DNA from: a bacterium
GTDB taxonomy: Bacteria; Sysuimicrobiota; Sysuimicrobiia; Sysuimicrobiales; Segetimicrobiaceae
Length of the DNA: 64,000 nt
Direction: 5' to 3'
NCBI GenBank assembly: GCA_035295165.1
Contig: DATGJN010000117.1
Span: 24,114-88,113, forward strand
Of the stretch, positions 8,420 through 43,208 are shown in pieces. The translations under genes and the position numbers were made by a program. Every line of letters begins with the position of its first letter. The stretch's first letter is position 1. The notes under the pieces are model-generated. The model worked only from the letters and a program-made list of their open reading frames with translations, was not told where the DNA came from and did no database searches.

Positions 8420-8930
8420 CGGGTACGAGCGGCGGATGCGGCGGCTCCTGCGGGCGCGGTACGGCGAGATCCGGCTGCACCCGACGCGCAACCCGGCGGG
8501 ACTCAGCCGCCGCGTCCGCGCGTATCTCGCCGGAACGCACCGCGCCATTGACGACGTCCCGGTCGACACGGGCGGCACGCCGTTCCAACGACGCGTCTGG
8601 TCGGCGCTGCGGAGGATCCCGGCGGGGCAGACACTGACGTACGGCGCGCTCGCCAGGCGGCTTGGGATCCCCGCCGCGAGCCGGGCGGTGGGGCGCGCGG
8701 TGTCGCTGAACCCGGTGGCCATCGTCGTCCCGTGCCACCGCGTGATCGGCGCCAACGGAACGCTCACCGGCTACGCCGGCGGCCTCGATCGCAAGCGCTG
8801 GCTCCTGGCGCACGAGGGCGCCGGCCCCACGCCGTCCCGAGGCCGCGCCGCGCCCGCGCGTACAACGCGCCGAACCCACGCCGGCGCCGTCCGTCTCGCG
8901 GTCGGAGCGGTGACGCGAACCCGTCAGTAG
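8331..8930 (+). CDS. ogt: methylated-DNA--protein-cysteine methyltransferase
   Basis: Active-site PCHRV motif and a YGALARRLGIPAASRAVGRAVSLNP helix-turn-helix. ATG at 8331 preceded by GGGAGGAGG. Confidence 0.9.
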   Translation: MNLLIDRIDSAIGTILVVSDGARLCALDYSGYERRMRRLLRARYGEIRLHPTRNPAGLSRRVRAYLAGTHRAIDDVPVDTGGTPFQRRVWSALRRIPAGQTLTYGALARRLGIPAASRAVGRAVSLNPVAIVVPCHRVIGANGTLTGYAGGLDRKRWLLAHEGAGPTPSRGRAAPARTTRRTHAGAVRLAVGAVTRTRQ

Positions 8931-10277: not shown

Positions 10278-11357
10278 CTACGAGAACAGCGTCCCCTGCC
10301 CGCGCCCGCCCCGATCCGGCACGGCCAGACCCAGGTGGTCGCAGGCCTGGGCGGTCACACGACGCCCGGATTGGGTGCGGGTCAGGAACCCGATCTTCAA
10401 CAGGAACGGCTCGACCATCTCGACGAGGCTGTCCACCTCCTCGTTGAGCGTCGCGGCGAGCGCCTCGACCCCGACCGGCCCGCCGCCGTACACCTCGATC
10501 ACCGTGCGCAGCAGCTCCCGATCCTGCACGTCGAGCCCGAGCGGATCCACGCCCTCGAACTCGAGGCCATCGCGCGCGACCTCCACCGTGATCGCGCCGT
10601 CCGCGCGAACCTGCGCGAAGTCACGCACGCGGCGCAGCAGCCGGTTCGCGATCCGCGGGGTGCCCCGGGCGCGTCGCGCGATCTCCGCGGCGCCGTCGTC
10701 CGTGATCGACACCCCGAGGATCGAAGCCGAGCGCCGCACGACCAGCGTCAGCTCGTCGACGGGGTAGAAGTCGAGATGCTGCGTGATCCCGAACCGCTCC
10801 CTGAGCGGGGACGACAGCAGGCCGGCCCGGGTCGTGGCCCCGACGAGCGTGAACGGCCGCAGCGTGTACCGCAGCGTCCGCGCGTGCGCGCCCTTCTCGA
10901 TGACGAAGTTGACGCAGAAGTCCTCCATCGCCGGGTAGAGGAACTCCTCCACCGTGCGCGGCAGGCGGTGGATCTCATCGATGAAGAGCACGTCGCCCTT
11001 GCTGAGGTTGGTGAGGATCCCCATCAGATCCCCGCCGCGCTCGAGGGCCGGCCCCGACGTGGTCACGATGCTCGTCCCCATCTCGGCGGCGACCACGTTT
11101 GCGAACGTCGTCTTGCCGAGCCCCGGCGGCCCGTGCAGGAGCACGTGATCGAGCGCCTCGCCGCGCTCGCGCGCGGCCTGCAGGCTGATCTTGAGCGCGC
11201 TGGTGACGCGGGTCTGCCCGATACACTCGTCGAGTCGCTTCGGACGCAGGCTGCGGATGAGCTGCTCGTCCTCGACCCCGCTGGGCGCGGGCCCCGCCGC
11301 GGGCGCGGGCCCCGGCCGCGGGTCGGACATGCCGCCGACGAGCCGCTCGCGGGTCAC
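10278..11357 (-). CDS. ruvB: Holliday junction branch-migration helicase RuvB
   Basis: Walker [10 protein letters not shown], a sensor region and a C-terminal winged helix. 4-nt overlap with ruvA. Confidence 0.95.
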
Positions 11358-11989
11358 GCGGGCGCTCCCCGCTCGGCGCGGTACACTTCCTGGAACAGAT
11401 CTTCTGCGGACGCGATCGCGGGGTTCCGCCGGAAGGCGTCCTCCACCATCCGCCGGGCCTCCGCGCCGCGGTGCCCCAACTGTCCGGTCAGCACCTCGAT
11501 CACCTCCGCGCGGAAGTCCTCCGCCGCGACCTCCGGCGGTACCGGTGTCTCGGACCGGAGCAGCGCGTACTTGCCCATCTTGCCGTGGAGGGAGGCCACG
11601 ATCTTCTCCGCGGTGCGCGCGCCGATCCCCGGCAGCCGGCGCAGAAACGCCACGTCTTTGCGCTCGATCGCGTCCGCGACCTGCTCGACCGGGTGCACGA
11701 TCGCTTTCATCGCCTTCGTCGGCCCCAACCCGTCGACGGTGATGAACCGCTCAAAGAACTCCTGCTCGATCTCTCGAAGAAACCCAACGAGCAGCGGCCT
11801 GGGCTGGTTCGTCGACACATGATAGGAGATGTGCAGTTCAAGTTCGGCTTCGCGGATCCGGCCCGGCTCCCCCCGCAGGAGGTCCCGGAGAAACCCCGGC
11901 AGCCGCACCTCGTACCCGACGCCGCCACACTCGATCACCAGCATGTCGTCGGCGTGGCGGATGACGCGCCCGCGCAAAAACGCGATCAC
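11354..11989 (-). CDS. ruvA: Holliday junction DNA-binding protein RuvA
   Basis: MIAFLRGRV... with tandem HhH motifs ([13 protein letters not shown]). Confidence 0.9.
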
Positions 11990-12495
11990 GCCGGCGCCCG
12001 GGCGCCGGCGCCGATCTGCAGCGCGGCCCCCCGCCGGGAGGCTGCAACGAGGGCGAGTGCCAGCGCGTCCGCCGCGTGCGAACCCGGCTCCTCAGCGAGG
12101 TTCAACAAGATGCGCACCATCCGCTGGATCTGGCGCTTGTCGGCCTGACCGGACGCGACCATGGCCCGCTTCACCGCGGCCGGCGCGATCGTGTCCACCG
12201 GCACCCGGGCCTGGGCCGCCGCGAGCCCGATCACCCCGCAGACATGCCCCATGATGATGGCCGTTCTGGGAAAGCCGGGATGGGCAAAGACATCCTCAAG
12301 GGCGATCGCGGCCGGCCGGCCGGCCGCGAGAATCTCGTGTACGCCCACGTGCAACTCGTGAAGTCGGATCGGGAGCGTGGCGCGAAGGCTGGTGCGGATC
12401 ACGCCGGCCTCCACGAACGCGACCCTGGCCCCCGTCACTTCGACGAGACCATACCCGGTCAACCGCAGTCCCGGGTCGATCCCAAGAATCCGCAT
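11986..12495 (-). CDS. ruvC: crossover junction endodeoxyribonuclease RuvC
   Basis: MRILGIDPGLRLTGYG... RNase H-like fold with catalytic acidic residues. Start chosen at M3 of the ORF. Confidence 0.9.
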   Translation of the reverse strand: MRILGIDPGLRLTGYGLVEVTGARVAFVEAGVIRTSLRATLPIRLHELHVGVHEILAAGRPAAIALEDVFAHPGFPRTAIIMGHVCGVIGLAAAQARVPVDTIAPAAVKRAMVASGQADKRQIQRMVRILLNLAEEPGSHAADALALALVAASRRGAALQIGAGARAPA

Positions 12496-12602
12496 GAACA
12501 CTGCTCCGACTCGGCATGGGCCGCTGCTGCGTCTCGATCAACAACGAACCAATGTTCGCCATTGGCCCCAACTCTCCTCCGCCCGGAGGCGGGCCGTCGA
12601 GG

Positions 12603-21751: not shown

Positions 21752-23104
21752 CTACTTGTACTTCGCGTAGATGCCCTTGATCTGGCCGACCCCCCACTTG
21801 ACCGAGGCTTCCAGATCTCCGGTGCGGACGTAGCGGGCCATCATATCCGGTACGACGAACGTCGCCAACACCTCCGCCGCGGGCGCGGCCGCGGGGCCGG
21901 GGTACCCGAACCACAGCGCCGCCTTGCCCCACTCCTGGAGGTAGCCGACCTTCGGATCGGCACCCAGCGCCGGCATCGGCTTCGTGTACCACTTCTGGAG
22001 GTACGGCATGTTGTAGCCCTTGCTCGCGGTGAGCGAGAACTTCACGTCGCCGCCGTACTGCTCCAAGAACGCCTTCGCCGCCGCCTGGTTCTTGGAAAAC
22101 GACCAGATCGCGAGCGTCGTCGGGTCGACGACGGGCGCCCGCATCACGGGCCCCATCGGTTCGATCCACGGGCCGGAGATGTTGACCTTGGCGTAGAGGT
22201 CGGGGTTGCTGTCCTGGATCGACCGGATCGCCGAGATCGCGTCGTGGATCCAGATCGCCACGCCGGAGTCGAGATACCGGTTGTCGGAGACGTTGTCCCA
22301 CGACAGCACTTCCGGGGTCATGGCCTCGTCGTACAACGCCTTCCCGAACCGCATCGCCGCCCTGAGCTCTTTCGAGTCCCACAGCACCTCTTTACCCGAC
22401 GGGTCCGCCTCCTTCACCCCGAAGGCATAGAAGATCGCGCGCCAGTCATGGTTGGAGTCGTTGCAGTGCGAGATCTGGATGCCCGTGGGGTGTCCCTTGG
22501 ACTTCCCGATGCGCCCCGCCGTGCGACAATGATCCCATGTGTCGGGACCCGCGAGGCCATACTCCTTGAAGAGATCGCTGCGCCACAGCATCGGCTGGGG
22601 AATGAAGAACTCGGGCATCGCGTACCAGTGGCCGTTCACGGAACCCACTTGCTTGGCCATCGGGATCCAGCCGCCGGCCTGAGCGCCGAGTTTCTCGCAG
22701 ACGTCGGAGACGTCGACCATGTGCTGATAGTACAGGGTGGTTTGGATGACGCCGTTCTGCTGGAAGATGTCGTGCCCGGCGCCCGCGGCGAGTTCTGAAG
22801 CGACTCGAGCGGGCAGCTGGTCGATCGGGATGTGGTCCACGCGCACCGTGACGTCGTTCGCCACGCCCCAGTCGTTCGCGTACTTGTCGAACGCGGTGTC
22901 GTAGGCAGGGACGAAGTGGCTCCAGGTGAGGATGCGCAGGGAACTGCCCTTGATCTGCGCCGGGGCCGCCCCCGCCTTCCAGGGCGCCACCAACGGGAGG
23001 AGCGCCGCGCCTGCAACACCTGCTCCTGCGGCGGTCAAAAGCTGACGCCGGGTGATCCGCCGGACGGAACGTGTACGAGACTGTCGGTCTGCCTTTCGTG
23101 CCAT
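21752..23104 (-). CDS. ABC transporter extracellular solute-binding protein (family 1, sugar/oligosaccharide) with a twin-arginine signal
   Basis: MARKADRQSRTRSVRRITRRQLLTAAGAGVAGAAL (Tat-like). No lipobox Cys. ATG at 23104 with AAGGAGGG upstream. Confidence 0.85.
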   Translation of the reverse strand: MARKADRQSRTRSVRRITRRQLLTAAGAGVAGAALLPLVAPWKAGAAPAQIKGSSLRILTWSHFVPAYDTAFDKYANDWGVANDVTVRVDHIPIDQLPARVASELAAGAGHDIFQQNGVIQTTLYYQHMVDVSDVCEKLGAQAGGWIPMAKQVGSVNGHWYAMPEFFIPQPMLWRSDLFKEYGLAGPDTWDHCRTAGRIGKSKGHPTGIQISHCNDSNHDWRAIFYAFGVKEADPSGKEVLWDSKELRAAMRFGKALYDEAMTPEVLSWDNVSDNRYLDSGVAIWIHDAISAIRSIQDSNPDLYAKVNISGPWIEPMGPVMRAPVVDPTTLAIWSFSKNQAAAKAFLEQYGGDVKFSLTASKGYNMPYLQKWYTKPMPALGADPKVGYLQEWGKAALWFGYPGPAAAPAAEVLATFVVPDMMARYVRTGDLEASVKWGVGQIKGIYAKYK

Positions 23105-23213
23105 CCGTATCCCTCCTTGGCGTGGCGTGCCTACTGCGTCGTGCAGTTTCTTATTACGCAACGCTACGGCGGGCGGGCCCGAAATGTTCCTAGAATTTCC
23201 CTCCCAAGTTACA

Positions 23214-23227
23214 GTATCTATAGATAC
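23214..23227. promoter_or_regulatory. perfect 14-bp palindrome GTATCTATAGATAC, plus a TAGATACG direct repeat 20 bp downstream, in an AT-rich 300-bp divergent control region
   Basis: Seen directly. Lies between the sugar ABC operon (minus) and imuA (plus). Confidence 0.3.
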
Positions 23228-23373
23228 GTGCAGATATGTTTAGATACGGTTTGATCGCGGGTTTTCAATTTTGAGCCGGAATAGTCCTCTCTGAATCATT
23301 GGGAATCTGGATGGGATTGCTGGTCTATTAGAGCGACGTCCTCAAAACACAAAAACCACTTGCAATTATATAC

Positions 23374-23387
23374 CGAACATATGTACG
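23374..23387. promoter_or_regulatory. LexA (Cheo-type) SOS box CGAACATATGTACG, 25 bp upstream of imuA
   Basis: 13 of 14 positions match the Bacillus consensus CGAACATATGTTCG. Overlaps a putative TTGCAA / TACGATAT promoter. Confidence 0.55.
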
Positions 23388-23411
23388 ATATATGCTGACG
23401 GTGCGTCTACT

Positions 23412-24035
23412 ATGCCGACCCCCGCGCGTGATGTGCTGAACCGACTCTCGTGGCGTCCAGTCACGAGCGTGCCGGCCGCGCCCGGCGCGCCGACGCTCGC
23501 CGCGCTGGCCGGTCAGTTGAGCGAGTTCTCGGGGCTCGGAGCCACGGCCGGTCTCACCATGGCAACGCGGTTGGTGCTAGACGCTCAACAGCAAGGAGAG
23601 ATCGCCGCCTGGATCACTCCTGTGGATCGGACCTTCTTCCCCCCAGACGTCGCGGAGAGCGGCGTGGATCTCGCCTCCCTGGTGGTGGTGCGCATCCCCG
23701 ACGCGATCGCCGCGGCGCGCAGCGCCGACCGGCTCACGCGATCGGGGGCCTTCGGCCTGCTGATCCTGGATCTGCATGGATCCCACACGCTGCCGCCCCA
23801 CGCGCTCGCCCGGCTCGCGGGACTGGCCCAACAGCATCACACGGCGATCGTCTTCGTGACGCAGAAATCCACCGACGCCGCATCGCTGGGATCGCTGATC
23901 GCGTTGCACGGCACGACGACGCGCGTGCGTCTTGAACCAGACGCGTTCACGTGCGCCCTGCGCATCGTCAAGGACAAGCGTCGGGGTCCCTGGACGTTCG
24001 AGGAAGTCTGCCGTGGACCGGCTGGCCTGCGTTAA
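23412..24035 (+). CDS. imuA: ImuA-like (inactive RecA-fold, SulA-like) mutasome protein
   Basis: About 207 aa with a degenerate RecA-like core (...SEFSGLGATAGLTMATRLVLDAQQQGEIAAWITP...GLLILDL). First gene after the LexA box and before imuB-dnaE2. Confidence 0.65.
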   Translation: MPTPARDVLNRLSWRPVTSVPAAPGAPTLAALAGQLSEFSGLGATAGLTMATRLVLDAQQQGEIAAWITPVDRTFFPPDVAESGVDLASLVVVRIPDAIAAARSADRLTRSGAFGLLILDLHGSHTLPPHALARLAGLAQQHHTAIVFVTQKSTDAASLGSLIALHGTTTRVRLEPDAFTCALRIVKDKRRGPWTFEEVCRGPAGLR

Positions 24036-25521
24036 CGTCCCGGAGTTTCCGATGCAGATCCTCCTCCGCGATCACCCCGAGTGGCGCGGGACGCCCGCCG
24101 CCGTCCTCGAGGAAGATCGACCGCAGAGCCCGGTTGTCTGGGTCAACGACCACGCCCGCCGGGCAGGAGTGCGTCCCGGCATGCGGTTTGCCGCCGCACT
24201 AGCGCTTTCTCCAACCCTCAACACGGGATGTGTCTCTCCCGTCCACATCGCGCAAGAACAGGATCGCCTGATCGCCAGGCTCCGGAAGTTCACGCCGGAC
24301 ATCGAACCGGCGGACGAACCCGGGATGTGCTGGGTCGGCCTGACCGGACTCGAACACCTCTATCCCTCGCCGGAGCGCTGGGCCGATGCGATCCGCGCGG
24401 ATCTCCAGGAGACCGGGATGCAGGCGACCGTGGTAATTGGGTTCACCCGCTTCGGCACCTACGCCGTCGCGCAGATTTCCCAGGGCACGCGGATCTTTCA
24501 CGATCCCGCCGACGAACGAACGGCGGCGATGGACGTCCCGCTCGCCCGTCTCGCGCTCGCCCCGGAGCTGCGGGATACGCTCGCCAAGCTCGACGTGACG
24601 ACCGTGCGCGCCCTAGTGCGGTTGCCGGAGGCCGGACTCCTCGAGCGGTTCGGCGTCGAGCCGTACCGGTTGCATCAGGCGGTCGGTGCGCGGTCGACGG
24701 CGTTGCGGCCGTCCGCCGAGCCCCTCCCCGTACGCGCTCGGCGCACACTCGACACACCGGAAACCGATCTGTCCCGATGCCTCTTCGTGTTCAAGCAGAT
24801 GCTCGACCCGATGCTGGCCACCCTGGCCGCCCGGGGAGCGGCGCTCGCCGCGCTCGGGATCCGGCTCAAGTTCGACCGGCACGGATGGCAGGCGGACCAT
24901 GTCCGGCCGGCCGCCCCGACGCTCGATTCCGTTCAAGTGCTGGATTTGGTCCGACTGCGCCTGGAGACCGTCCGGCTCTCCCAGGCGCCCGCGGAAGCGC
25001 AGCGGGCCGCAGCCGGGATCGTCGACATCGAACTCACGGCCGAGGCAGTCCTCGCGACCCACGAGCAGCTCCGGTTCTTTGGCGTCCATCCGCACCGCGA
25101 TCTCGCCGCCGGCAACCGTGCGCTGGCCCGCCTCCGGGCCGAGCTCGGCGAGCAAGCGGTGGTCCGCGCGCGGCTTCGAGACGGCCACCTCCCCGAGTCC
25201 CACGTCACGTGGGAGCCGGTGGCCGCGCTCACGCTCCCCCGCCCCACCCTTGTGCCGCAGCGGACGCTCGTCCGGCGCATCTGGACGCATCCGGTGCCGG
25301 TCGCGACGGCCACGACGCGGCAACACGACGGATGGCTGATTCTCGGGACGGCGTACGGTGCGGTGGACGACCTGCTCGGTCCCTACGTCGTCTCCGGCGG
25401 CTGGTGGGTCCGCGAGGTGGACCGCGCCTACCACTTTGCGCAGACCAGGCGCGGCGACCTCTTGTGGGTATACCACGATCGGCGGCGGCGGCGGTGGTTC
25501 CTGCACGGCCAGGTGGAGTGA
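24013..25521 (+). CDS. imuB: Y-family-polymerase-like mutasome subunit ImuB
   Basis: N-terminus [23 protein letters not shown]... (UmuC-like fold lacking catalytic acidic residues). GTG at 24013 after GAGGAAG; overlaps the imuA 3' end. Confidence 0.8.
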
Positions 25522-25525
25522 CCTC

Positions 25526-28500
25526 GTGTACACGCCGCTGTGGTGCAAGAGCGCGTTCTCATTTTTGGAGGGCGCATCACACCCCGAGGAGTTGGTGGAC
25601 GAGGCGCACCGCCTCGGCCTGCGGGCTATCGCGCTGACGGACCGCGACGGCGTGTACGGGGTGGTGCGCGCGCACGTGACGGCACGCGAGACGGGATGCC
25701 GCCTGATCTCCGGCGCGGAGGTCACCCTCACCGACGGCTCGATGGCCGTCCTCCTCGCGCAGGACCGCACCGGCTACGCGAACCTCTGCCGGCTGCTCAC
25801 GCTGGGGCGGCGCCGGTCGCCCAAAGGCATCAGCACCGTCACCTGGGCCGAGGTCTGCGCGCATGCGCGCGGCCTCATCGCGTTGTGGGGCGGAGATCGG
25901 AGCCTGCTCGCTGGCGAGTCCGTCCCGGACGCGGTCGCCGGATCGGTGCGGGACGCGTTCGGCGACGCGGTGTACGCACTCGTCACCCGCCACCGCCAGA
26001 GCACCGACCCTCGCCAGGAGGCGCGGGTACGCAACCGTGCCGCCCGCTACGCCCTCCCCGTCGCGGCCGCGGTCGAGGTCCTCTATCACACGCCCGCCCG
26101 CCGGCCGCTGCAGGATGTCCTCACCTGCCTCAGGCACGGGACCCAACTCGCGGACGCCGGGCGGCTGATTAAGCCCAACGCCGAGCACGCCGTGCTCTCG
26201 CCGTACGCGTTCGCAACACTGTTCCAGGACGATCCGGACGCCGTGGCCCGCACCGAGGAGATCGCCGCACGGTGCGTCTTCTCGCTCGATCAACTCCGCT
26301 ATCGCTATCCGGAGGAACGGGTCCCCGTGGGCACGACCCCCGAAGCCTGGCTCCGCCGACTCGTGTTCGAGGGCGCCCGGGAGCGCTATCCAGACACGGT
26401 CCCGACCGACGTCGCGCAGCAGCTCGAAAAGGAACTGACGCTGATCGCCGAGCTGGACTACGGAGGGTACTTCCTGACGATGTGGGAGATCGTCCAGTTT
26501 TGCCGCCGGGAAGGAATCCTCTGTCAGGGACGCGGCTCCGCCGCCAACTCCGCCGTCTGCTACTGTCTGGGGATCACCGCGGTGGATCCGGTGCGGATGA
26601 ACCTGCTGTTCGAGCGCTTCCTCTCCCGGGAGCGCGCCGAGCCGCCCGACGTAGATCTGGACATCCAGCACAATCGCCGCGAGGAGGTCATCCAGTTCGT
26701 CTACACGCGATACGGACGCACGCACGCGGCGATGGTCGCGAACGTCATCCGCTACCGCCCGCGGTCGGCCGTGCGGGACGTCGGCAAGGCGCTGGGGATT
26801 CCGGAGACCGGGCTCGACCGCCTGGCCCGGCTCCTTGACTACGGCGGCGCGGTCCCCCCGGAGACGCTGCAGGCGGCGGGGCTGGATCCGGAGACCCCGG
26901 CGCACCGGCACCTACTGCGCCTCACGAACGAGCTGGTGGGACTCCCCCGCCACCTGTCGATCCACCCCGGTGGGTTCTTGCTGGGCGATCACCCGGTGGA
27001 CGAGATCGTCCCGATCGAGAACGCCACGATGGACGACCGGACGGTCATCCAATGGGACAAGGACGATCTCGAAACCCTTGGGCTGTTCAAGGTGGATTTG
27101 CTTGGGCTCGGCGCGCTCACACATCTCGACCTGGCGTTCCAGTTGCTCCGGGGCCACCGGGGCGTCGCGCACTCCATGGCGACGATCCCGGCGGACGATC
27201 AGGCGACGTTTGCGATGGCATCCCGCGCCGACACGGTCGGCGTGTTCCAGATCGAAAGCCGCGCCCAGATGGCGATGCTCCCGCGCCTGCGGCCGCGCAG
27301 CTTCCATGATCTGGTCGTCGAGATCAGCATCGTGCGCCCGGGCCCGATCACGGGAGGGATGGTGCATCCCTATCTGCGCCGCCGGAACGGCGAGGAGAAG
27401 GTCGAGTATCCTCATCCGTCGCTCATCCCGGTCCTCGAAGGGACCCTCGGCGTTCCCCTCTTTCAGGAACAGGTGATGCGGCTCGCGGTCGTCGCCGCAG
27501 ACTACACGCCGGGCGAGGCCGACCAACTGCGTCGCGACATGGCGGCCTGGCGCCGCACCGGCCGCATCGAGCGCCACCGCGACCGGCTAATCTCGCGCAT
27601 GCAGGCCAAGGGAATCGCGCCCGAGTTCGCCGAGCGGGTGTTCAAGCAGATCTGCGGGTTTGGGGAATACGGCTTCCCGCAGTGTTGCGTGGGTGAGACC
27701 TGGGTCCTTGATGCCTCGACGGGCCGCTGGGTCATGATCAAAGACGTGGCGCACGGACGCGTGCGGTTGCGGACCACGCTCGCGTGCGACGCGAATCTCC
27801 GTCTTCGCAAACGCCGCGTGACAGGGGTGACATCGAGCGGGCCCCGACCGGTCTTTCGAGTGGTCACGGCGCTCGGACGATCCGTCGCCGCCACGATTGA
27901 GCATCCGATCCTGACCCCGGAGGGATGGGTTCCGCTCGGTGCCCTGCGGCCGGGAGATCGCATCGCCGCCGCGCGCAGGGCCACAGCTCCAAAGCCCACC
28001 AATGGAATCCATCAGGACGGGATGACGTCACGCGAGGTCGTCCCGGTGGGCGTGAGAGAAATCGTCGACCGCGAGGTCGCTCGACGCCCCGACGCCCGGC
28101 AGCAACGCACTCCCCCCACCAGCTTGCGTCTGCACGAGGCGCAACCCGGTGATGTACTGCGCTGGTCTGTGGCCCGCGCTGGGCGCGAGCGTCGATCCTC
28201 GGATCGTCCCCAACTCGCCACTGCCGACGTTTATTGGGACCGCGTCACGATGATCCAGCCGCTCGGTATGCGGGACACGTACGACCTGCACGTGGAAGGC
28301 GACCACAACTTCCTCGCCAACGATCTCGTGATCCACAACTCGCACGCCGCCAGCTTCGCCCTGATCGCCTACGCGACCGCGTATCTCAAGTGCCACTTCC
28401 CCGCGGAGTTTACGTGCGCGCTCCTCAACGCGCAGCCGATGGGCTTCTACAGCGCGGCCACGATCGTCGAGGACGCCAAACGCCACGATATCGTCGTCCG

Positions 28501-29269
28501 GCCGGTGGACGTCCGGCAGAGTGCGTGGGACTGCACGCTCGAACCGTGCGCGCGCGCCGGCGGAATGGCCGTGCGCATGGGGCTGCGCTACGTCCACGGG
28601 CTCGGCGAGGATGCCGGCACGCGCCTGGTACGCGTCCGCGACGAGGCGCCGTTCGCATCGCTCGACGACTGCGTGCGGCGGGCCGGGCTCGACCGGGGTG
28701 CGCTCGCCGCCCTCGCGGAGGCGGGGGCATTCGAGCGCTTCGACGACAACCGTCGAGCGGCGTTGTGGGAGGTGCACGGCCTGGCGCGCCGGCGAGAAAT
28801 CGCGCTGCCGATCAGCGTGCCCGAACCTGCGCCGGCGCTCACCCCCCTGAGCCTCCGCGAGCAGATCGCCTGGGACTATCGAGTCGCCGCCCACAGCACC
28901 CGAGGACACCCTCTGGAAGCACTCCGGGAAGACCTTCGGTCTGCAGGCCTACCTGACGCGCGCACTGTCGGCACACTCCCCAACGGCCGCGCCGTCCGGT
29001 ACGCGGGGCTCGTCATCTGCCGGCAGACGCCCGGTACTGCGTCGGGCGTGACCTTCATGACGCTCGAGGACGAGACCGGCTTCGTCAATCTCGTCGTCTG
29101 GGAACGCGTCTTCGAGCGGTTCGTGACGTTGGCTAAAACCGCCGTGTTCCTCGGCGTCTCGGGAACGATCCAGCGAGAACACGAGGTCGTCCACATTGTC
29201 GCCCGGACGCTGTGGACGCCGTCGGTCCACCACCGCCCGCCCATGCTCCGAAGCCGGGATTTTCACTAG
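25526..29269 (+). CDS. dnaE2: error-prone DNA polymerase III alpha-type DnaE2 (ImuC), interrupted in frame by a mini-intein
   Basis: N-terminal PHP domain [18 protein letters not shown]..., palm/fingers motifs, and a C-terminal OB fold. GTG at 25526 after GGTGGAG, 4 nt past the imuB stop. Confidence 0.9.
27683..28339 (+). other. mini-intein (Hint domain, 219 aa, no LAGLIDADG/HNH endonuclease) inserted in the DnaE2 finger motif GFPQ|SHAASFA
   Basis: Block A CCVGETWV. Block [15 protein letters not shown]. Blocks [24 protein letters not shown] followed by +1 Ser. Conceptual excision restores the conserved Pol III alpha [12 protein letters not shown] motif. Confidence 0.8.
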
Positions 29270-29711
29270 CGGGGCCGGACGAGCGCTCGGCTCGACGTAG
29301 CGGCGCGGATCTCACTTACGGGCCGGGCGCGCGTTCTTGGACGGCCGGCGACGGCCGGTGAGCCGCGCAAGCACGCGGACCGAGCGGCCGGACACCTGCA
29401 TTCCGCGACGCTTCGCGCGGCTCACGTCGCGGCGCGCGGCGTGACGATCCGGTGCGTCAGCACTCAGACGCGGCACTCACGTCCTCCCCAGGCGTGACAT
29501 CCACACGCGCGCCTCGTCGCCACCCGTTCACGCGGCCGGGATGCAACCCGCGCTGCGTTCCGTTACCCTGTCGGGCGCCACACTTCCTGTCGCCGCCCGT
29601 GCCGTTCCGGCCGACGGCATGGTACGATCTGGATCGGCGATCCACCCGATCACGCGGAAACAGATCCGGCCCCGGCGGAGCGGCGGGCCGGCCACCGGGG
29701 GGCGAAACGCA

Positions 29712-31202
29712 ATGTGTGCGAGCGGAAGGCTTCGATACCTGGCGGCCGCGATCGCCGTGGTGTTTGTGGTGTGTCTCAGCGGCAGCCCATCGCCCGCGAC
29801 GGGCGATCCGTCGGAGGCCGGCGGACGGGGCGACATCTCGGTGCTCGTGAGCGGGATCCCGCTCGGCGCGGAGGTGCCAGACGAGTTCCTCGGCTTGAGC
29901 TTCGAGACGACCGCCCTGGACGATGACGAGTTCGCCGCGGATCGCCCGGTACTGATTCGACTGTTCGCCAATCTCGGCACGGGCGTCGCCCGATTTGGCG
30001 GCAACACGCTCGACCAGTCGGCCTGGACACCCGCCGGCGTCTTTGAGGGCGCCACGTCGACCGTGACCCCGGCCGATCTGCAGCGCATGTTTGACTTCAC
30101 TCGGCAAACCGGCTGGAAGGTGTTGCTCGGCCTGGACCTCGGCCACTACGATCCCGAGGCCGCGGCCGACGAAGCGGCGACGGCCACGCTCCTCGGGGCC
30201 GGGTCGCTGGACGCCTTTGAGTTCGGCAACGAGCCCGACCTGTACGTCCGCACCTACGCCGGGGCCCTGCGTCCATCCTCGTACGGCGTGCCGGAGTACC
30301 TGCGTGAGTGGCAGGAGTACCTCCGGGCGGTGCGGCGCCGCGTGCCGAACGCGCGGGTGGTCGGCCCGAGCATCGCCGGCACGGCGGGCGGCGTCGAGAT
30401 CCTGCGGCAGCTCGCCGAGGCAGAACACAACGAGATCGAGTTCGCCACATCGCATCACTACCCGTTGGGGGCACCGATCACCGATCTCCATTCGCCCGCG
30501 TACGCGAGCATTTCCAATCTGGTCTCGCCCGCGCTCCGGGCGCGGGAGGTCGAGGAAATCGGGGGGTGGGTGCGGACCGTCACGGAGGTCGGCCAGTCGC
30601 TCCGTCTGACCGAGACCAACTCCGTATTCGGCGGGGGCAAGCACGGCGTCAGCGACACAGTCGCCGGCGCCCTGTGGACGGTGGACTACATGTTCCGCAT
30701 CGCCCAGCTCGGCGTGATCGGCATCAACCTGCACGCGACGCTCGACCGGTGCGGCGGCTATACACCGATCTGTGCGCCGACGCGCGCCGATGCACAGGCG
30801 GACCGGTTCCACGTCCAGCCCAACTATTACGCGCTGCTGCTGTTCCATGTGGCCGCGCAGGGCCGGTTCATCCCGACGAAAGTCGCCCCGAACGCGCGCG
30901 TGACCGCGTACGCCACCCGGGGCGCCGACGGCCTGACCCGGATCACCGTCGTCAACTTCGGCGTCCAGGTGGCGACGGTCCGGATCCGCGTCATCGACGC
31001 GGCCGCCGACAGTTCGGGGTCCCTCATCCGCCTGCTCGGTCCGTCGCTCGACGCCACGGAAGGCGTGACCCTCGGCGGCAGCGTCGTGGCCGCAGACGGG
31101 ACGTTGACCATGGACCCGCCGGAACCGGTGGCGTTCGCCGGTGGGGTGGCGCGACTCGACCTCCCCGGCGCAAGTGCCGCGGTGCTCACGCTGTCAAAGT
31201 AA
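29712..31202 (+). CDS. secreted glycoside hydrolase family 79-like (beta-glucuronidase/heparanase-like)
   Basis: Signal peptide MCASGRLRYLAAAIAVVFVVCLSG. Putative acid/base FGNEPD and nucleophile ETNS motifs at the expected spacing. Confidence 0.7.
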   Translation: MCASGRLRYLAAAIAVVFVVCLSGSPSPATGDPSEAGGRGDISVLVSGIPLGAEVPDEFLGLSFETTALDDDEFAADRPVLIRLFANLGTGVARFGGNTLDQSAWTPAGVFEGATSTVTPADLQRMFDFTRQTGWKVLLGLDLGHYDPEAAADEAATATLLGAGSLDAFEFGNEPDLYVRTYAGALRPSSYGVPEYLREWQEYLRAVRRRVPNARVVGPSIAGTAGGVEILRQLAEAEHNEIEFATSHHYPLGAPITDLHSPAYASISNLVSPALRAREVEEIGGWVRTVTEVGQSLRLTETNSVFGGGKHGVSDTVAGALWTVDYMFRIAQLGVIGINLHATLDRCGGYTPICAPTRADAQADRFHVQPNYYALLLFHVAAQGRFIPTKVAPNARVTAYATRGADGLTRITVVNFGVQVATVRIRVIDAAADSSGSLIRLLGPSLDATEGVTLGGSVVAADGTLTMDPPEPVAFAGGVARLDLPGASAAVLTLSK

Positions 31203-36268: not shown

Positions 36269-37237
36269 TCACCGCGGCACGCCCCCCGTCGCGCGGGGGC
36301 GTACCTCGGGGGCACAGTCGGTGTGCCAAGGCGCCTCGACGGCCTCCGTCTCGAGCTGGATCGTGGTATGACTGAGCCCAAACCGCTCGTGCAGCGTCGT
36401 GCACAACGCCATGAGGATGTGGTGTCCCTCGGCCGGGTTGGCGATGCGCACGTGCGCGCTTACGGCGGGAACGCCAGCGGTAAGCGACCAGACGTGGAGG
36501 TCGTGGATCTCGAGCACGCCGGGGACCGCGCGCATGGCGGCTTCGACCGCCGGCATCGAGATCCCGCGCGGCGTCGCCTCCATGAGGATCGCCACGGCGT
36601 CCCGCACCGGCGCCCAGGATCCCACAAGCAGCAGGCCGGCGATCCCGAAGCTCACCCACGCATCCGCAGCGGTCCAGCCGGTCGTGAGGATCACGAGGCT
36701 CGCGGCGATCGTCCCGACGGCCGCGGCGGCGTCCCCGAGAACGTGCACGAGCGCCGCCCGGACGTTCAAGTTCTCGCCCCCAGACCGGGCGAGGAGCGCG
36801 GTGCTGGCGAGGTTCCCGGCCAGCCCGACCACCGCGACGACCAGCATCGCCGGCGCGACCACAGGGTGCGGCGCCCCGAGACGGCGGACCGCCTCGTAGA
36901 TGATCGCCGCGGCGATCACCCACAGCGCCACACCGTTCGTGACCGCGGCGAGGATCTCGGCCCGTCGATAGCCGTACGACATCTGCGACGTCGCCGGGCG
37001 CGATGCCACCCAACTTCCCACGACCCCGAGCCCAAGGGCGCCGACGTCCACGAGCAGATGTCCCGCGTCCGCCAGCAACGCGAGGCTACCCGTGACCCAG
37101 CCCCCCACCGCCTCGACCAGCAACAACGACAGCGTGACCCCGAGGGCGAGCCCGAGCGCCCGCGCCGAGCGCGCCGTCTCGCCGCCGCGCTCGGGTTCGT
37201 GACCGTGCCGGTGTCCCGGCGCGCCGTGTCCGATCAT
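36269..37237 (-). CDS. cation diffusion facilitator (CzcD/ZitB-type) metal efflux transporter
   Basis: His-rich N-terminus, six TM segments, HxxxD motifs, a C-terminal CTD (HDLHVWSLTAG). Confidence 0.85.
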   Translation of the reverse strand: MIGHGAPGHRHGHEPERGGETARSARALGLALGVTLSLLLVEAVGGWVTGSLALLADAGHLLVDVGALGLGVVGSWVASRPATSQMSYGYRRAEILAAVTNGVALWVIAAAIIYEAVRRLGAPHPVVAPAMLVVAVVGLAGNLASTALLARSGGENLNVRAALVHVLGDAAAAVGTIAASLVILTTGWTAADAWVSFGIAGLLLVGSWAPVRDAVAILMEATPRGISMPAVEAAMRAVPGVLEIHDLHVWSLTAGVPAVSAHVRIANPAEGHHILMALCTTLHERFGLSHTTIQLETEAVEAPWHTDCAPEVRPRATGGVPR

Positions 37238-39624
37238 TGTTCCGCGAACTCCACGATCGTCGCCCCCGTCCCACCCTCGCCATCCGCGCCGACCCGAAAC
37301 GACACGACCTCCGGATGGTGGGCGAGGTACTCGTGGACCGCGCGCCGCAGCGTCCCGGTGCCCTTCCCGTGGATGATCGTCGCCCGCGGCAGCCCGGCGA
37401 GCACCGCGTCGTCGAGGTACTTGTCCAGCTCCGCCAACGCCTCCTCCGTCCGCTTGCCGCGCAGGTGAATCGACGCCGGGACGGAGAGCGCCTTCGCGAG
37501 GGGACCCTGCCCGGGGCCCTCACGAGCCGCGTCCGCAGCGTTCGGCGCTTCCCGCTCGGCGCGGCCGTCGTCCACACGGCGCAGCTCGTCGGAGGACACG
37601 CGCACTTTGAGCGCGCCGACCTGAACCTCCACCTCCCCGCGCGCATCGGGAAGCACCTGCACGACCCCCCGCTGCCCAAGCGACGTCACCAGCACGGTAT
37701 CTCCCACCCGGAGATCTTGCGGGGGCGCGCCGGACACGGGGACCCGGGTCTCGACCGCGTAGCGCTCCGAGAGCTGCCGCAGCTCCCGCAGATGGGCACG
37801 CACCTGCGCCGTCGCTTCCGGCGTCGGCTTCGAGCGCAACGCGGCGAGGAGTACCTGAAGCTCCCCTTCCGCGCGCCGCTGCAGCCCCGCGAGTTCGGCC
37901 TGGAAGCGCTCGAGCACGCGCCGGCGGTCGGCGGCGAGGCGTTGTGCCTCCTCGCGCGCCCGCGCCTCGGCGCGCGCGAGGTCGGCCCGTTCCCGCACAA
38001 GCGTTTCGCGCTCGCGGAAGAGCGCGTCTCGCTCCTCTTCGACACGTTGGATCACGCGGGTCAGATCGGTCGCGTGCGGCGACAGGTACCCTTTAGCCCG
38101 CTCGATGATCTCCGAGGCGAGCCCCAAGCGGTTGGCGATCGCGAGCGCGTTGCTGCGCCCCGGCGTCCCGATCAGCAGCCGGTACGTCGGCCGGAGCGTC
38201 GCGTCGTCGAACTCCACCGAGGCGTTCTCGACCCCGGGATGGGTGAACGCGAGCGACTTGAGCTCGTTGTAGTGGGTGGTCACAGCGGTGCACGCCCCGA
38301 CCGCGTGCAGCGTCTCGATCAGCGCACGCGCAAGCGCAGCCCCCTCCGCCGGATCGGTGCCGGCGCCCACCTCGTCCAGCAGCACAAGCGCCCGCGCGGG
38401 GCCAGGCGGCGTGCCGCGCAACGCCTCGAGGATCTCCACGATCGCCGTGAGGTGCGACGAAAACGTCGAGAGATTCTGCTCCACGCTCTGCTCATCACCG
38501 ATGTCCGCGTACACGTGGGGGAACACCGCGACATCGCTCTCGGGGGCGGCAGGCACATGCAGCCCGGCTTCGGCCATCAGCGTCAGCAGTCCGAGCGTTC
38601 GAAGCGTGACCGTCTTGCCGCCGGTATTGGGACCGGTGATGACCAACGTGCGGAACGCGTCGCCGAGCCGAATGTCGATCGGGACCACGGTCCCGGTCAA
38701 CAACGGGTGACGGGCCTCGCGCAGATCCACGCACCCGGCCGCGTTGAGCCGCGGCGCCGCCGCCCCCATCTCCGCGCCAACGTGCGCTTTGGCCGCCGCG
38801 ACATCCAGCTCCCCGAGCGCCATGAGCGTCTCCACGATCCGGTCGCCCGCCGCACCAACCGCGGCGCTCAGCGCGGCGAGGATCCGCGCCACCTCTTCCC
38901 GTTCCTCCGCCGCCAGCTCACGGAGCCGGTTGCCGAGGGGAACCGCGGCCAACGGCTCCATGAACACGGTCATGCCGCTCGCGGATTGGTCGTGCGCCAC
39001 CCCGGGAAACTGCTCGCGAAACTCGGCCCGCACCGGCACCACGAACCGGTCGTCGCGAATGGTGATCAGGGGATCCTGCAGCATCCGGGCCATCGCGGGC
39101 GTCCGCAGGACCTGCTCCATCCGTTCGCGGAGGCGCGCCTCGCTGGCGCGCCGCTCCCGCCGAATGCGGGCCAGGTCGGGGCTCGCGCCGTCCACGACGA
39201 TCCCCTCGTCGTTGAGGGCACCCGCGATCTCCCCTTCCAGCTCGGAAAACACCTCGATACCGTCGGCGATCTCGGCGAGGACCGGCACGTCGGCCTCCCG
39301 CGACGCGAGAAACCCCTTGAGCGTGCGCGCGACGCCAAGGGTGTCTCGAATGTCGAGCAGTTCCCGCGGCGTGAGCACGCCGCCGATCTGCGCGCGGTGC
39401 GTCGACGCCCGGATGTCGCGGGCGCCCCGCACCGGCAGGCCGCCCGCCTGCTCGAGCAGCGCGCGCGCCTCGGACGTCTCCTGCTGGCGCCGCTCCACCT
39501 CCTCGACCCACGGCGACGGCGTGAGCGCGAGCGCCCGTTCCCGCCCGACGGTGGAGACGCACCGACCGGCCAAGCGTTCCAGCACGGCGGGGAACCCGAG
39601 CACGCGGAGGGCGCGGGGCGTCAC
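37234..39624 (-). CDS. mutS2: endonuclease MutS2 (MutS domains III/IV + ATPase + C-terminal Smr)
   Basis: Walker A GPNTGGKTV, DEVGAGTDP, and a C-terminal Smr (LDKYLDDAVLAGLPRATIIHGKGTGTLRRAV). GTG start at 39624 overlaps the upstream stop (GTGA). Confidence 0.9.
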   Translation of the reverse strand: MTPRALRVLGFPAVLERLAGRCVSTVGRERALALTPSPWVEEVERRQQETSEARALLEQAGGLPVRGARDIRASTHRAQIGGVLTPRELLDIRDTLGVARTLKGFLASREADVPVLAEIADGIEVFSELEGEIAGALNDEGIVVDGASPDLARIRRERRASEARLRERMEQVLRTPAMARMLQDPLITIRDDRFVVPVRAEFREQFPGVAHDQSASGMTVFMEPLAAVPLGNRLRELAAEEREEVARILAALSAAVGAAGDRIVETLMALGELDVAAAKAHVGAEMGAAAPRLNAAGCVDLREARHPLLTGTVVPIDIRLGDAFRTLVITGPNTGGKTVTLRTLGLLTLMAEAGLHVPAAPESDVAVFPHVYADIGDEQSVEQNLSTFSSHLTAIVEILEALRGTPPGPARALVLLDEVGAGTDPAEGAALARALIETLHAVGACTAVTTHYNELKSLAFTHPGVENASVEFDDATLRPTYRLLIGTPGRSNALAIANRLGLASEIIERAKGYLSPHATDLTRVIQRVEEERDALFRERETLVRERADLARAEARAREEAQRLAADRRRVLERFQAELAGLQRRAEGELQVLLAALRSKPTPEATAQVRAHLRELRQLSERYAVETRVPVSGAPPQDLRVGDTVLVTSLGQRGVVQVLPDARGEVEVQVGALKVRVSSDELRRVDDGRAEREAPNAADAAREGPGQGPLAKALSVPASIHLRGKRTEEALAELDKYLDDAVLAGLPRATIIHGKGTGTLRRAVHEYLAHHPEVVSFRVGADGEGGTGATIVEFAEQ

Positions 39625-40854: not shown

Positions 40855-41487
40855 TCAGCGCACCGGCCGCGAGAGAAAGGGCGATCCGCGCTCGACGAAC
40901 CGCCGCCGCGCGTCCGTTGCCACCGAGATGCCGATGCGCGGCGTGCGGACCACGGCCGGCGGGCGCGGGCCCCGAGCCAGATACAGCGGCCCGGCGACGA
41001 GGTCCGCGCGGTTGTCCGCGAGCGTGATGCCGAGCGCCTGCGTGAGCCGCCCCGGACCGCTCGCAAGCAACCGCGCGTCGCCGACCCCACGCCGACGGCG
41101 CATGAGGTCCAAGCCCGCGATGGGCTCGAGCGCACGGATGAGCACGGCTCCGGCGCGCCCCTCGGGCTCGGTCACGACGTTCACGCAGGCGTGGTTGCCG
41201 TAGCTGAAGTACACGTACGCGGTTCCCGGCCGGCTCCACATCACTTCGCTGCGCGAGGTGCGCCGGTACGCGTGGCTCGCCGGATCCCGGGGGCCCAGGT
41301 ACGCCTCCACCTCCACCAGGCGTCCGGCGGTCCGCCCCTCCACCGACTGGTGCACCAGGTAACAGCCGACGAGGTCACGCGCCACCGCGAGCGTACTCCG
41401 GGCGAAGAACGCACGCGGCAGCCGGCGAAACGCGCGCGGCGGCATGTCCGGCGGCACCGTGACCGACGGCCGGCGCCGATGTGTCAT
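40855..41487 (-). CDS. mpg: DNA-3-methyladenine glycosylase (Mpg/AAG family)
   Basis: [23 protein letters not shown]...[17 protein letters not shown]...[15 protein letters not shown]...[14 protein letters not shown] at 41487 overlaps the polX stop (ATGA). Confidence 0.8.
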
Positions 41488-43208
41488 CCGCGCAAGAAGT
41501 CGAGCAGCGTCGCGAGCGGCCAGGCGTTGATCACGTCTTTCGGCTCCACCCATCCCCGTCGCGCGGTGCCGACGCCGTATTCGATCTGCGCGAAATGCTC
41601 CTTGCGGTGGGCGTCGCTGCCGATCTCGAACAGCACGCCGCGGTCCCGCGCGAGGCGCACGTGCGTGTCACGCAGGTCGAGGCGTTCAGGGGAGGCGTTG
41701 ATCTCCAGCACCGTCCCGGTCTGGTGCGCCACGTCCACCACCGCCTCCATGTCGAGGTCCATCGGCTCGCGCTCGCCCACGAGTCGGCCGGTGGGATGAC
41801 CGAGCACGTCGAGGTGCGGGTGCTCCAGCGCGCGCACGACGCGCCGGGTCAACGCCTCGCGCGTCATCTGCATCCGGGAGTGCACCGACCCGATCACCAG
41901 GTCGAGCGAGGCGAGCACGTCGTCCGGGTAGTCGAGCGATCCGTCAGCGAGAATGTCCACCTCGGCACCGATCAGGACGCGGATGCCTACCCGCTCGCTG
42001 ACCTCCGCGACGGTCCGGACGTGCTCCCGCAGCGCGTCCACGGTCACACCGCCAGCGAACTTGAGCGACTGAGAGTGATCGGTGACGCACACGTAGGCGT
42101 ACCCGCGGGCCTTGGCGGCCCGCGCCATCGCCTCGACAGCATCCTGCCCGTCGCTCCACGTCGTATGCATGTGCAGGTCCCCGCGGATGTCCTCGAGGGC
42201 GACGAGCGCGGGCAAGGCGCCGCGCTGTGCGAGTTCAAGCTCGCCCTGCCCCTCGCGGATCTCGGGAGGCACCCACGGCAGCCCGACCGCGCCGTAGACT
42301 TCCTCCTCGGTGCGCCCCGCGATCCGCCGATCGTCTGCGAGGGTGAACACGCCGTACTCGTTGATCTTGAGCCCCCGGCGCACGCCCATCTCGCGAAGTT
42401 GCACGTTGTGGTCCTTGCTCCCGGTGAAATACTGCAGCGCGGCGCCGTACGCGTCGGGCTCCACGGCCCGGACGTCGCACTGCACGCCCAGTCGGCCGAG
42501 GATCACGCTGCTGCGCGTCGGCCCGCGCGAGAGAACCTCTCCGACCTGCGGCAGGCCCACGAAGGTGTCCATCACCGCCTCGGGCGCCCGCGTGGCCACG
42601 ACGAGATCGATGTCCGCGATCGTGTCGCGCATGCGTCGGAGGCTGCCGGCGAGGGCGAGCGCCTCCACGCCGGGCGCGCGACGAAGCGCATCCTCGATCG
42701 CGTGCGCATACGGCAGCACGGCGCCGAGCGGATGGCGGGTCCCCTGGCGACGCCGGCGTTCGATACCGCGGAGGATGTTCGCTTCGGTCTTCGCGCCCAT
42801 CCGGGGAAGCTCGCGGATCTGCCCGGCGAGGGCGGCGCGCTCGAGCGCGTCCATGTCGGCGATCCCGAGGTGATCGAACAAGAGACGCGCGGTCTTGGGG
42901 CCGACCTCCGGGATCGTCATCAGCTCCGACAGCCCCCGCGGAAGCTCGCGCTGCAGCTCTTGGTGGTACCCGACGGCGCCGGTCTTGAGGTATTCCTCGA
43001 TCTTCTCCGCCAGCTTCGCCCCGATCCCTCCGACCTTGCGCAGGTCACCGCGCTGCGCGATCGTGGCGACGTCCTCGCCGAGGCTCTCGAGCGCACGCGC
43101 GGCCCGTCGGTAGGCGTTGATGCGGAACGTCGACTCCTGCTTGATCTCCAGAAAGTCGGCGATCTCGGAGAAGACTCTGGCCAGCTCCAGGTTGTGGGAC
43201 GTCGGCAC
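41484..43208 (-). CDS. polX: family X DNA polymerase with C-terminal PHP 3'-5' exonuclease domain (PolX)
   Basis: N-terminal HhH/8-kDa and Pol beta-like core ([18 protein letters not shown]). PHP motifs ([11 protein letters not shown]...VTDHS). Confidence 0.9.

Follow-up and report, generated by a model that had tools for sequence, protein, structure and literature searches.

A Cheo-type LexA-like operator that overlaps a putative -10 hexamer upstream of an imuA-imuB-dnaE2 cassette with a mini-intein in DnaE2

We begin by considering the SOS mutagenesis cassettes that are already described. The control of imuA-imuB-dnaE2 by LexA, including control through boxes of the form GAAC-N4-GTTC, is textbook knowledge. 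The literature counts the cassette within the minimal regulon of LexA in Bacteria as a whole (PMC4951493, PMC3919608, PMC6511836). The arrangement lexA-imuA-imuB-dnaE2 is known, and in Firmicutes and Actinobacteria LexA has the motif GAAC-N4-GTTC, variants of which occur in Chloroflexi and Cyanobacteria (PMC4951493). Here we examine a bacterial stretch of 64,000 nucleotides (contig DATGJN010000117.1, positions 24,114 to 88,113, referred to as the window), in which a box of this class precedes three co-oriented genes that encode an ImuA-like protein, ImuB and the error-prone polymerase DnaE2. The explanation that we favor as a whole, and consider quite probable, is a LexA-gated ImuA-ImuB-DnaE2 operon in which the operator and the -10 hexamer share bases and in which DnaE2 is interrupted by an intein.

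The Cheo-type (GAAC-N4-GTTC class) LexA-like operator, CGAACATATGTACG, occupies positions 23374-23387 as read on the + strand. It agrees with the Bacillus subtilis consensus CGAACATATGTTCG at 13 of 14 positions, has an A/T-rich spacer, and is the sole site in the window with at most one mismatch to that consensus; none of 100 dinucleotide-preserving shuffles of the window contains such a site. When up to three mismatches are allowed, five matches are found in the window against 1.45 expected. The box is separated by 24 nucleotides from the ATG at 23412, the earliest possible start of the downstream open reading frame. The original prediction had placed it 25 bp upstream of the cassette with a 13 of 14 match to the Bacillus-type consensus; our recount reproduces the match, and the distance was right to within one. 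The intergenic region that holds the box is 307 bp long with a G+C content of 47% (about 70% in the window), and is flanked by a divergent gene for an ABC-transporter binding protein on one side and by the imuA-like open reading frame on the other. An inverted-repeat search places the operator within an extended imperfect palindrome, ATATACCGAACATATGTACGATATAT (23368..23393), with arms that are 87% complementary.

The next question is "does this box exist in the promoters of related cassettes?" We scanned one genome per species with a profile of the ImuA family and obtained 80 loci, referred to below as the related cassettes. The promoter of the window was then compared, aligned by the box, with those of five independent relatives: L004 and L089/L090 (ImuA 78% and 76% identical to that of the window, both with the box CGAACATATGTACG), L005 and L091/L092 (67% and 63%, both with CGAACATACGTACG), and L020 (48%, with CGAACAAATGTACG). 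A block of 23 nucleotides, ATACCGAACAtAnGTACGaTAT, has 20 positions that are invariant in the six promoters, and the flanks on either side of it resemble each other no more than expected by chance. On this alignment we regard the block as a clear phylogenetic footprint. The right half-site GTAC, including the A that departs from the consensus, is invariant in all six.

This departure falls in a region that also looks like a promoter. A -35-like hexamer, TTGCAA (23360..23365, + strand), has an equivalent in each of the six orthologous promoters, where the hexamer reads TTGCAA, TTGCAT, TTGCCC, TTGCCT, TTGCGT or TTGACC. A putative -10-like hexamer, TACGAT (23384..23389, + strand), overlaps the right half-site at a conserved spacing; it reads TACGAT in five promoters and TACGCT in L020, and lies 17-18 nucleotides after the -35-like hexamer (18 in the window). 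The first four bases of TACGAT are the last four of the box, so that the mismatched A is position 2 of the hexamer. The A at position 2 is the most critical base of sigma-70 -10 elements, and GTTC in place of GTAC would give TTCGAT, a hexamer without this key A. The A of the "mismatch" is thus probably the base on which the -10 hexamer depends, neither a neutral nor a tuning change, and the operator would be asymmetric because promoter and operator overlap at these bases. A scan of 22900-29800 with Rfam gives no matches.

A second box in the window allows us to examine what the regulator recognizes. This site, CGAACATTGGTTCG (12545..12558, - strand), is intergenic, lies 49 nucleotides upstream of the ruvC ATG at 12495, and comes just after the hairpin that terminates an upstream DinB_2-family gene. 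It has perfect arms with the canonical GTTC; apart from the imuA box, no other site of the window combines an A/T-rich spacer with arms that have one mismatch or none. The original prediction had not noted it. The genes behind it, ruvCAB (12495..10278, - strand, in the order ruvC-ruvA-ruvB), probably belong to the regulon as a second unit; ruvC has been proposed as one of the genes that LexA commonly regulates in Proteobacteria and Gram-positives (PMC3091678). Since CGAACATTGGTTCG carries GTTC, the regulator would recognize GAAC/GTTC, and GTAC would be specific to the imuA promoter. Three other SOS genes, lexA, recA and uvrA, are absent from the window. In addition, lexA adjoins imuA in 45 of the 80 related cassettes, in nearly all of them directly upstream. 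The LexA control that the original prediction had claimed for this cassette is therefore supported indirectly but well, by the six-promoter footprint, the overlap with the putative -35 and -10 hexamers, the ruvCAB box and the lexA genes beside 45 of the 80 relatives, and from these we infer LexA binding, use of the promoter and induction by damage.

The operators of the wider family are of more than one kind. The LexA motifs of alpha- and gammaproteobacteria and of Verrucomicrobia were sought upstream of all 80 related cassettes and are absent there. A different palindrome, CAGAC(A/G)-N2-TGTCTG, is located 40-121 nucleotides upstream of lexA in 12 of the 45 lexA-carrying cassettes (L008, L016, L021, L022, L024, L028, L047, L049, L050, L055, L064 and L066), and a thirteenth locus, L070, has a weaker AGAC-N4-GTCT version of it. 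The hosts belong to Acidobacteriota, Planctomycetota, Gemmatimonadetes, Desulfarculaceae, Polyangiales, Sericytochromatia and Latescibacteria. This palindrome may be the operator of a cassette-borne LexA2 and may travel with the cassette.

We turn our attention to the three proteins. The imuA-like gene (23412..24035, + strand) encodes 207 amino acids that, by profile and motif comparison, comprise only an ATPase-dead RecA core. The similarity of the product to ImuA and to RecA is weak but runs over its full length. A profile built from 25 members of the family matches the RecA core with E of about 1e-11, and an alignment to the NCBIfam ImuA equivalog NF033429 spans model positions 52-178 of 181. 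The Walker A motif of RecA, GPESSGKTT, is replaced by GLGATAGLT, in which the lysine is lost and GKT has become AGL, and the C-terminal domain is absent. ImuA and ImuA' are published as RecA homologues without a functional ATPase site or a C-terminal domain (PMC6511836), a definition that the predicted product fits. There are 701 homologues, many of them annotated as "recombinase A", and on sequence similarity the product is placed in a divergent ImuA-like clade to which NCBI gives that name.

The second gene, imuB (24013..25521, + strand, with a GTG start), encodes a predicted inactive Y-family polymerase of 502 amino acids with a C-terminal extension. The Y-family domain is recognized by the Pfam model IMS with 59 bits. 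When ImuB is aligned to structures of Pol IV, VNVPEF stands in place of the DinB motif VDMDAF and CWVGLT in place of SIDEAY; with these replacements the catalytic carboxylates are absent. The protein is longer than DinB (502 against about 350 amino acids) and its C-terminal extension is long; the sequence QLRFFG at residues 352-357, where relatives conserve QLx[LMF]F, fits a clamp-binding-type motif. The GTG at 24013 has a GAGGA Shine-Dalgarno sequence 7 nucleotides upstream and gives an overlap of 23 nucleotides with imuA. The gene caller starts imuB of this contig at the ATG at 24052 (489 amino acids), which would remove the conserved N-terminus; in the relatives imuB is called with the 23-nucleotide overlapping start, at 498-502 amino acids. 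The GTG of dnaE2 at 25526 follows the imuB stop by 4 nucleotides and a GGAG by 7. The same contiguous, co-oriented layout, with the 23-nucleotide overlap and the 4-nucleotide gap, is found in L089, L091 and L020. The two junctions had been read in just this way before, and the Shine-Dalgarno positions and the relatives bear them out.

The third gene, dnaE2 or imuC (25526..29269, + strand), encodes a precursor of 1247 amino acids that is predicted to become 1028 after removal of an intein. The protein scores 1321 bits against the NCBIfam model NF004225 ("error-prone DNA polymerase", cut-off 939), and the DnaE1 model gives the same protein 640 bits, which is under its own cut-off. Pfam recognizes PHP, DNA_pol3_alpha, finger, HHH_6 and OB domains, and the NCBI record (HLJ62286.1) is named "error-prone DNA polymerase"; a further protein of the window is in NCBI as HLJ62284.1. 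By domains and profiles, the identification of the cassette as an imuA-imuB-dnaE2 mutasome is solid, in agreement with the earlier reading of the three genes (RecA-fold ImuA-like, ImuB, DnaE2) as the SOS mutagenesis module.

What the original prediction overlooked is an intein. It is a mini-intein of 219 amino acids (27683..28339, + strand; residues 720-938 of DnaE2), inserted in frame between GFPQ and SHAASFA. It is recognized by Pfam Intein_splicing with 57 bits and, above their cut-offs, by TIGR01445 and TIGR01443. The intein starts with CCVGETW (Cys1-Cys2), contains a block B TIEH, ends with DLVIHN, and is followed by the Ser+1 of SHAASFA. By these motifs it is assigned as a class-1 mini-intein with all canonical splicing residues (Cys1, TxxH, His-Asn and Ser+1). 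The N-extein aligns to the alpha subunit of Escherichia coli DNA polymerase III up to residue 757, which puts the insertion in the finger motif, between GFP(E/Q) and SH, at approximately E. coli residues 758/759. The E. coli finger motif at this point is GFNK followed by SH. Because the intein interrupts dnaE2, the polymerase cannot work without protein splicing, and from the canonical residues we expect that splicing would occur.

The presence of the intein is sporadic. The site is uninterrupted in L004 (YGFPQAHAASFA; DnaE2 85% identical) and in L005 (YGFPCSHAASFA; 80%), and the dnaE2 genes called in L089 and L091 have the lengths expected without an intein (1085 and 1031 amino acids). Of the other 47 fetched loci that extend to the site, 45 have it uninterrupted. 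The remaining two loci, L010 (Rokubacteria) and L024 (Acidobacteriota), have an intein at the same site, each with LAGLIDADG_3. The intein of the window has no LAGLIDADG or HNH match at E up to 1, the lack that defines a mini-intein, and retains a stretch of about 75 residues with homology to the post-endonuclease region. Given the missing endonuclease and this remnant, we read the mini-intein as a LAGLIDADG homing intein that has lost its endonuclease through deletion. The intein of L010 (10118-11227 of that locus) keeps its LAGLIDADG region and has about 38 residues, including block B (TxxH), absent; this intein is unable to splice, or else the assembly contains an error.

To place the intein among its relatives, we made an exhaustive HMMER search, which gave 4504 related sequences, and checked the seven top matches against NCBIfam. 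Three of the seven are DnaE2 proteins with the intein at model position 739 of NF004225, the site found in the window; three are DnaE1 proteins with the intein at the homologous position, and one is a DnaB helicase with a related intein. Because inteins occupy the same site in DnaE2 and in DnaE1, it is a niche in which inteins recur among C-family polymerases. In published surveys of such polymerases, inteins are said to be excised before the analysis (PMC3919608, PMC6511836). In the literature that we searched, a limited library, we found no description of an intein in DnaE2/ImuC.

Combining this information, a model of the operon can be assembled. A sigma-70-type promoter (TTGCAA, 18 nucleotides, TACGAT) would transcribe the three genes, and the 14-bp operator would span the promoter spacer and the -10 hexamer. 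A dimer of host LexA, encoded elsewhere in the genome, would bind this operator and exclude RNA polymerase; upon DNA damage, RecA-stimulated self-cleavage of LexA would free the promoter. The departure GTAC for GTTC would be fixed, since its A doubles as position 2 of the -10 hexamer. The three genes would be translationally coupled through the 23-nucleotide overlap and the 4-nucleotide gap, each with its own Shine-Dalgarno sequence. ImuA would serve as an ATPase-dead RecA core, ImuB as a dead Y-family scaffold with a clamp-binding-type motif, and DnaE2 as the polymerase, whose precursor would splice out the 219-residue intein, rebuild the finger motif and so yield the active enzyme.

Several observations weigh against this model, and they have to be considered together with the alternatives that they favor. 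A tblastn search with the E. coli and B. subtilis LexA proteins finds no lexA in the 64-kb window, and the gene table lists no LexA-type protein in the 10 kb to the left of it. Most of the lexA-linked relatives have operator sequences other than the Cheo type, so that the Cheo motif is not inherent to the cassette itself. A generic promoter scan with a threshold of 9 of 12 gives no matches, because the two hexamers score 8 of 12. The imuA-like product stays below the cut-offs of both Pfam RecA (23.7 bits against 27) and the equivalog NF033429 (28.9 against 150), and is outside the latter family by that measure. Finally, the G+C content at third codon positions (GC3) is 0.75 in the intein and 0.85-0.88 in the exteins. 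One could suppose that the conserved palindrome is merely Cheo-like and is the operator of another lineage-specific repressor (XRE/helix-turn-helix, DdrO- or PafBC-like): there is no lexA in the 74 kb examined, the conserved block of 23 nucleotides is asymmetric and longer than a LexA box, and lexA-carrying related cassettes bear the different palindrome CAGAC-N4-GTCTG. Against such a repressor, 13 of the 14 positions of the core agree with the LexA consensus, and a copy with perfect arms stands before ruvCAB, ruvC being one of the genes for which common LexA regulation is proposed (PMC3091678). The gene order of the window resembles that of Firmicutes, in which, as in Actinobacteria, LexA has the motif GAAC-N4-GTTC (PMC4951493), and the -10 hexamer would account for the additional conserved bases. 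We consider another repressor improbable.

The original prediction had suggested that the GTAC mismatch tunes repression. In its full form, GTAC would be a deliberate, affinity-lowering mismatch that times the induction of the mutasome independently of promoter function. The mismatch is indeed kept in all six orthologues, and a weakened half-site is expected to lower the affinity of LexA. Tuning, however, needs no single invariant base across such divergence, and the A lies exactly at position 2 of the only correctly spaced -10-like hexamer, which GTTC would turn into TTCGAT. We find no specific support for tuning, and an invariant A at -10 position 2 explains the departure more simply; tuning is possible but rather unlikely, and it is compatible with the -10 explanation, the two not being mutually exclusive. 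A different concern is whether the operon is functional at all. If it has decayed, with a degenerate intein that no longer splices, a dead DnaE2 and a cassette on its way to being lost, then the loss of the homing endonuclease, the GC3 of the intein below that of its host gene and the absence of the intein from the closest relatives would be accounted for. All of the canonical splicing residues are nevertheless present within an intact frame of 1247 codons, the exteins have a normal GC3 and 80-85% identity to relatives without the intein, and the operator is intact, as are the two coupled starts, which makes decay very unlikely. Equally doubtful, in our estimate, is a two-tier control in which LexA gates transcription at an operator with bases in common with the -10 hexamer and the immobilised mini-intein, placed in the nucleotide-binding finger motif, acts as a conditional post-translational switch on DnaE2, for example a redox- or damage-sensitive one, given the Cys1-Cys2 pair; if it were true, error-prone synthesis would be licensed only when the LexA and the intein conditions are both met.

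The surroundings of the cassette can be described briefly. The repair genes that the original prediction had listed as nearby are all present, at distances of 8-20 kb from the cassette rather than close to it: Ada/AlkA (6845-8419), Ogt (8436-8930) and, on the - strand, MutS2 (37234-39624), Mpg (40855-41487) and PolX (41484-43208). In the window scan none of them has a Cheo box. The gene order of the window includes ruvC-ruvA-ruvB followed at a distance by queA-tgt-yajC, and infC-rpmI-rplT, pheS-pheT-cvpA-polX-mpg and mutS2, an order that resembles that of Firmicutes; spoIID and a SpoIIE-family phosphatase gene are also present. The closest homologues of PheT are 53-90% identical, and the nearest with a named phylum, at 45-48%, are from Armatimonadota. 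The lineage looks like one allied to Firmicutes and Armatimonadota. The window matches contigs of soil metagenomes, JGI 3300027986 by exact protein identity and, in the European Nucleotide Archive (ENA), ERZ27279680 k141_403149 (134 kb). Between 33771 and 56050 it differs from contig k141_403149 by 4 substitutions in 22,280 bases; the two are separate assemblies of nearly the same strain.

Downstream of the cassette, a gene of 496 codons (29712-31202) was considered as a further member of the operon and rejected: it starts 442 nucleotides after the dnaE2 stop, and its product has a hydrophobic N-terminus and no Pfam match. From this N-terminus the product is probably secreted, and the gene is probably unrelated to the mutasome. 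A homologue 83% identical to it is located just downstream of dnaE2 in L004, and L089 has a protein of 497 amino acids without Pfam matches about 2.6 kb downstream of dnaE2. On the other side of the cassette, the A/T-rich intergenic region holds two copies of a further sequence, TATCTATAGATACG and TATGTTTAGATACG, arranged as an inverted repeat 20 nucleotides apart at 23211-23250. This repeat is not conserved in L089 and may serve a regulator of the ABC-transporter operon that is transcribed divergently.

What do these observations add? Our understanding of SOS mutagenesis is not overturned by them, and the apparent overlap of promoter and operator together with the DnaE2 mini-intein are modest additions. 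The window adds one lineage, an uncultured group from soil with Armatimonadota as its nearest named relatives, to those with a mutagenesis cassette behind an operator of the GAAC-N4-GTTC type, and fits the view that the ancestral core of the SOS regulon is translesion synthesis. The base that the repressor half-site and the apparent -10 hexamer share would explain how a "non-consensus" operator can be perfectly conserved. An endonuclease-free intein in the finger motif of an error-prone polymerase also offers a natural case for the question "does splicing modulate mutagenesis?"

We finally compare the locus with the known systems. The closest is the LexA-regulated imuABC cassette of adaptive mutagenesis (Erill et al. 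2006, cited through PMC4951493 and PMC3919608), which has the same three proteins in the same order. The likeness extends to ImuA and ImuB, both dead enzymes, and to a box of the GAAC-N4-GTTC class, here in a putative promoter (the Actinobacteria/Firmicutes class, PMC4951493). The cassette of the window differs in that its host is an uncultured lineage, its ImuA is too divergent for the NCBIfam equivalog and its DnaE2 carries an intein. No lexA lies beside it, as one does in 45 of the 80 related cassettes, and its genes are contiguous, whereas the mycobacterial imuA'-imuB/dnaE2 (PMC10421592) is split.

The intein, like the known DnaE inteins, would be a class-1 Hint-fold element in the GF(N/P)xSH finger motif of a C-family polymerase. 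The split DnaE intein of cyanobacteria sits four residues earlier, between AEY and CFNKSH; it is split, whereas the intein of the window is contiguous and lies in the error-prone paralogue. The nearest solved structures are those of DnaB mini-inteins (Protein Data Bank (PDB) accession codes: 1mi8, 4o1r). From the DnaE and DnaB inteins it differs by the deletion of the endonuclease, with the post-endonuclease remnant of about 75 residues. The operator, for its part, shares with the B. subtilis Cheo box CGAACATATGTTCG the 14-bp length, the 5-N4-5 geometry and 13 of 14 positions. On the opposite strand the site reads CGTACATATGTTCG, and in this orientation 13 of its 14 positions, among them the GTAC half, agree with the Nostoc LexA box RGTACNNNDGTWCB (PMC3091678). 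What sets it apart from both boxes is that its asymmetry is fixed and coincides with the predicted -10 hexamer.

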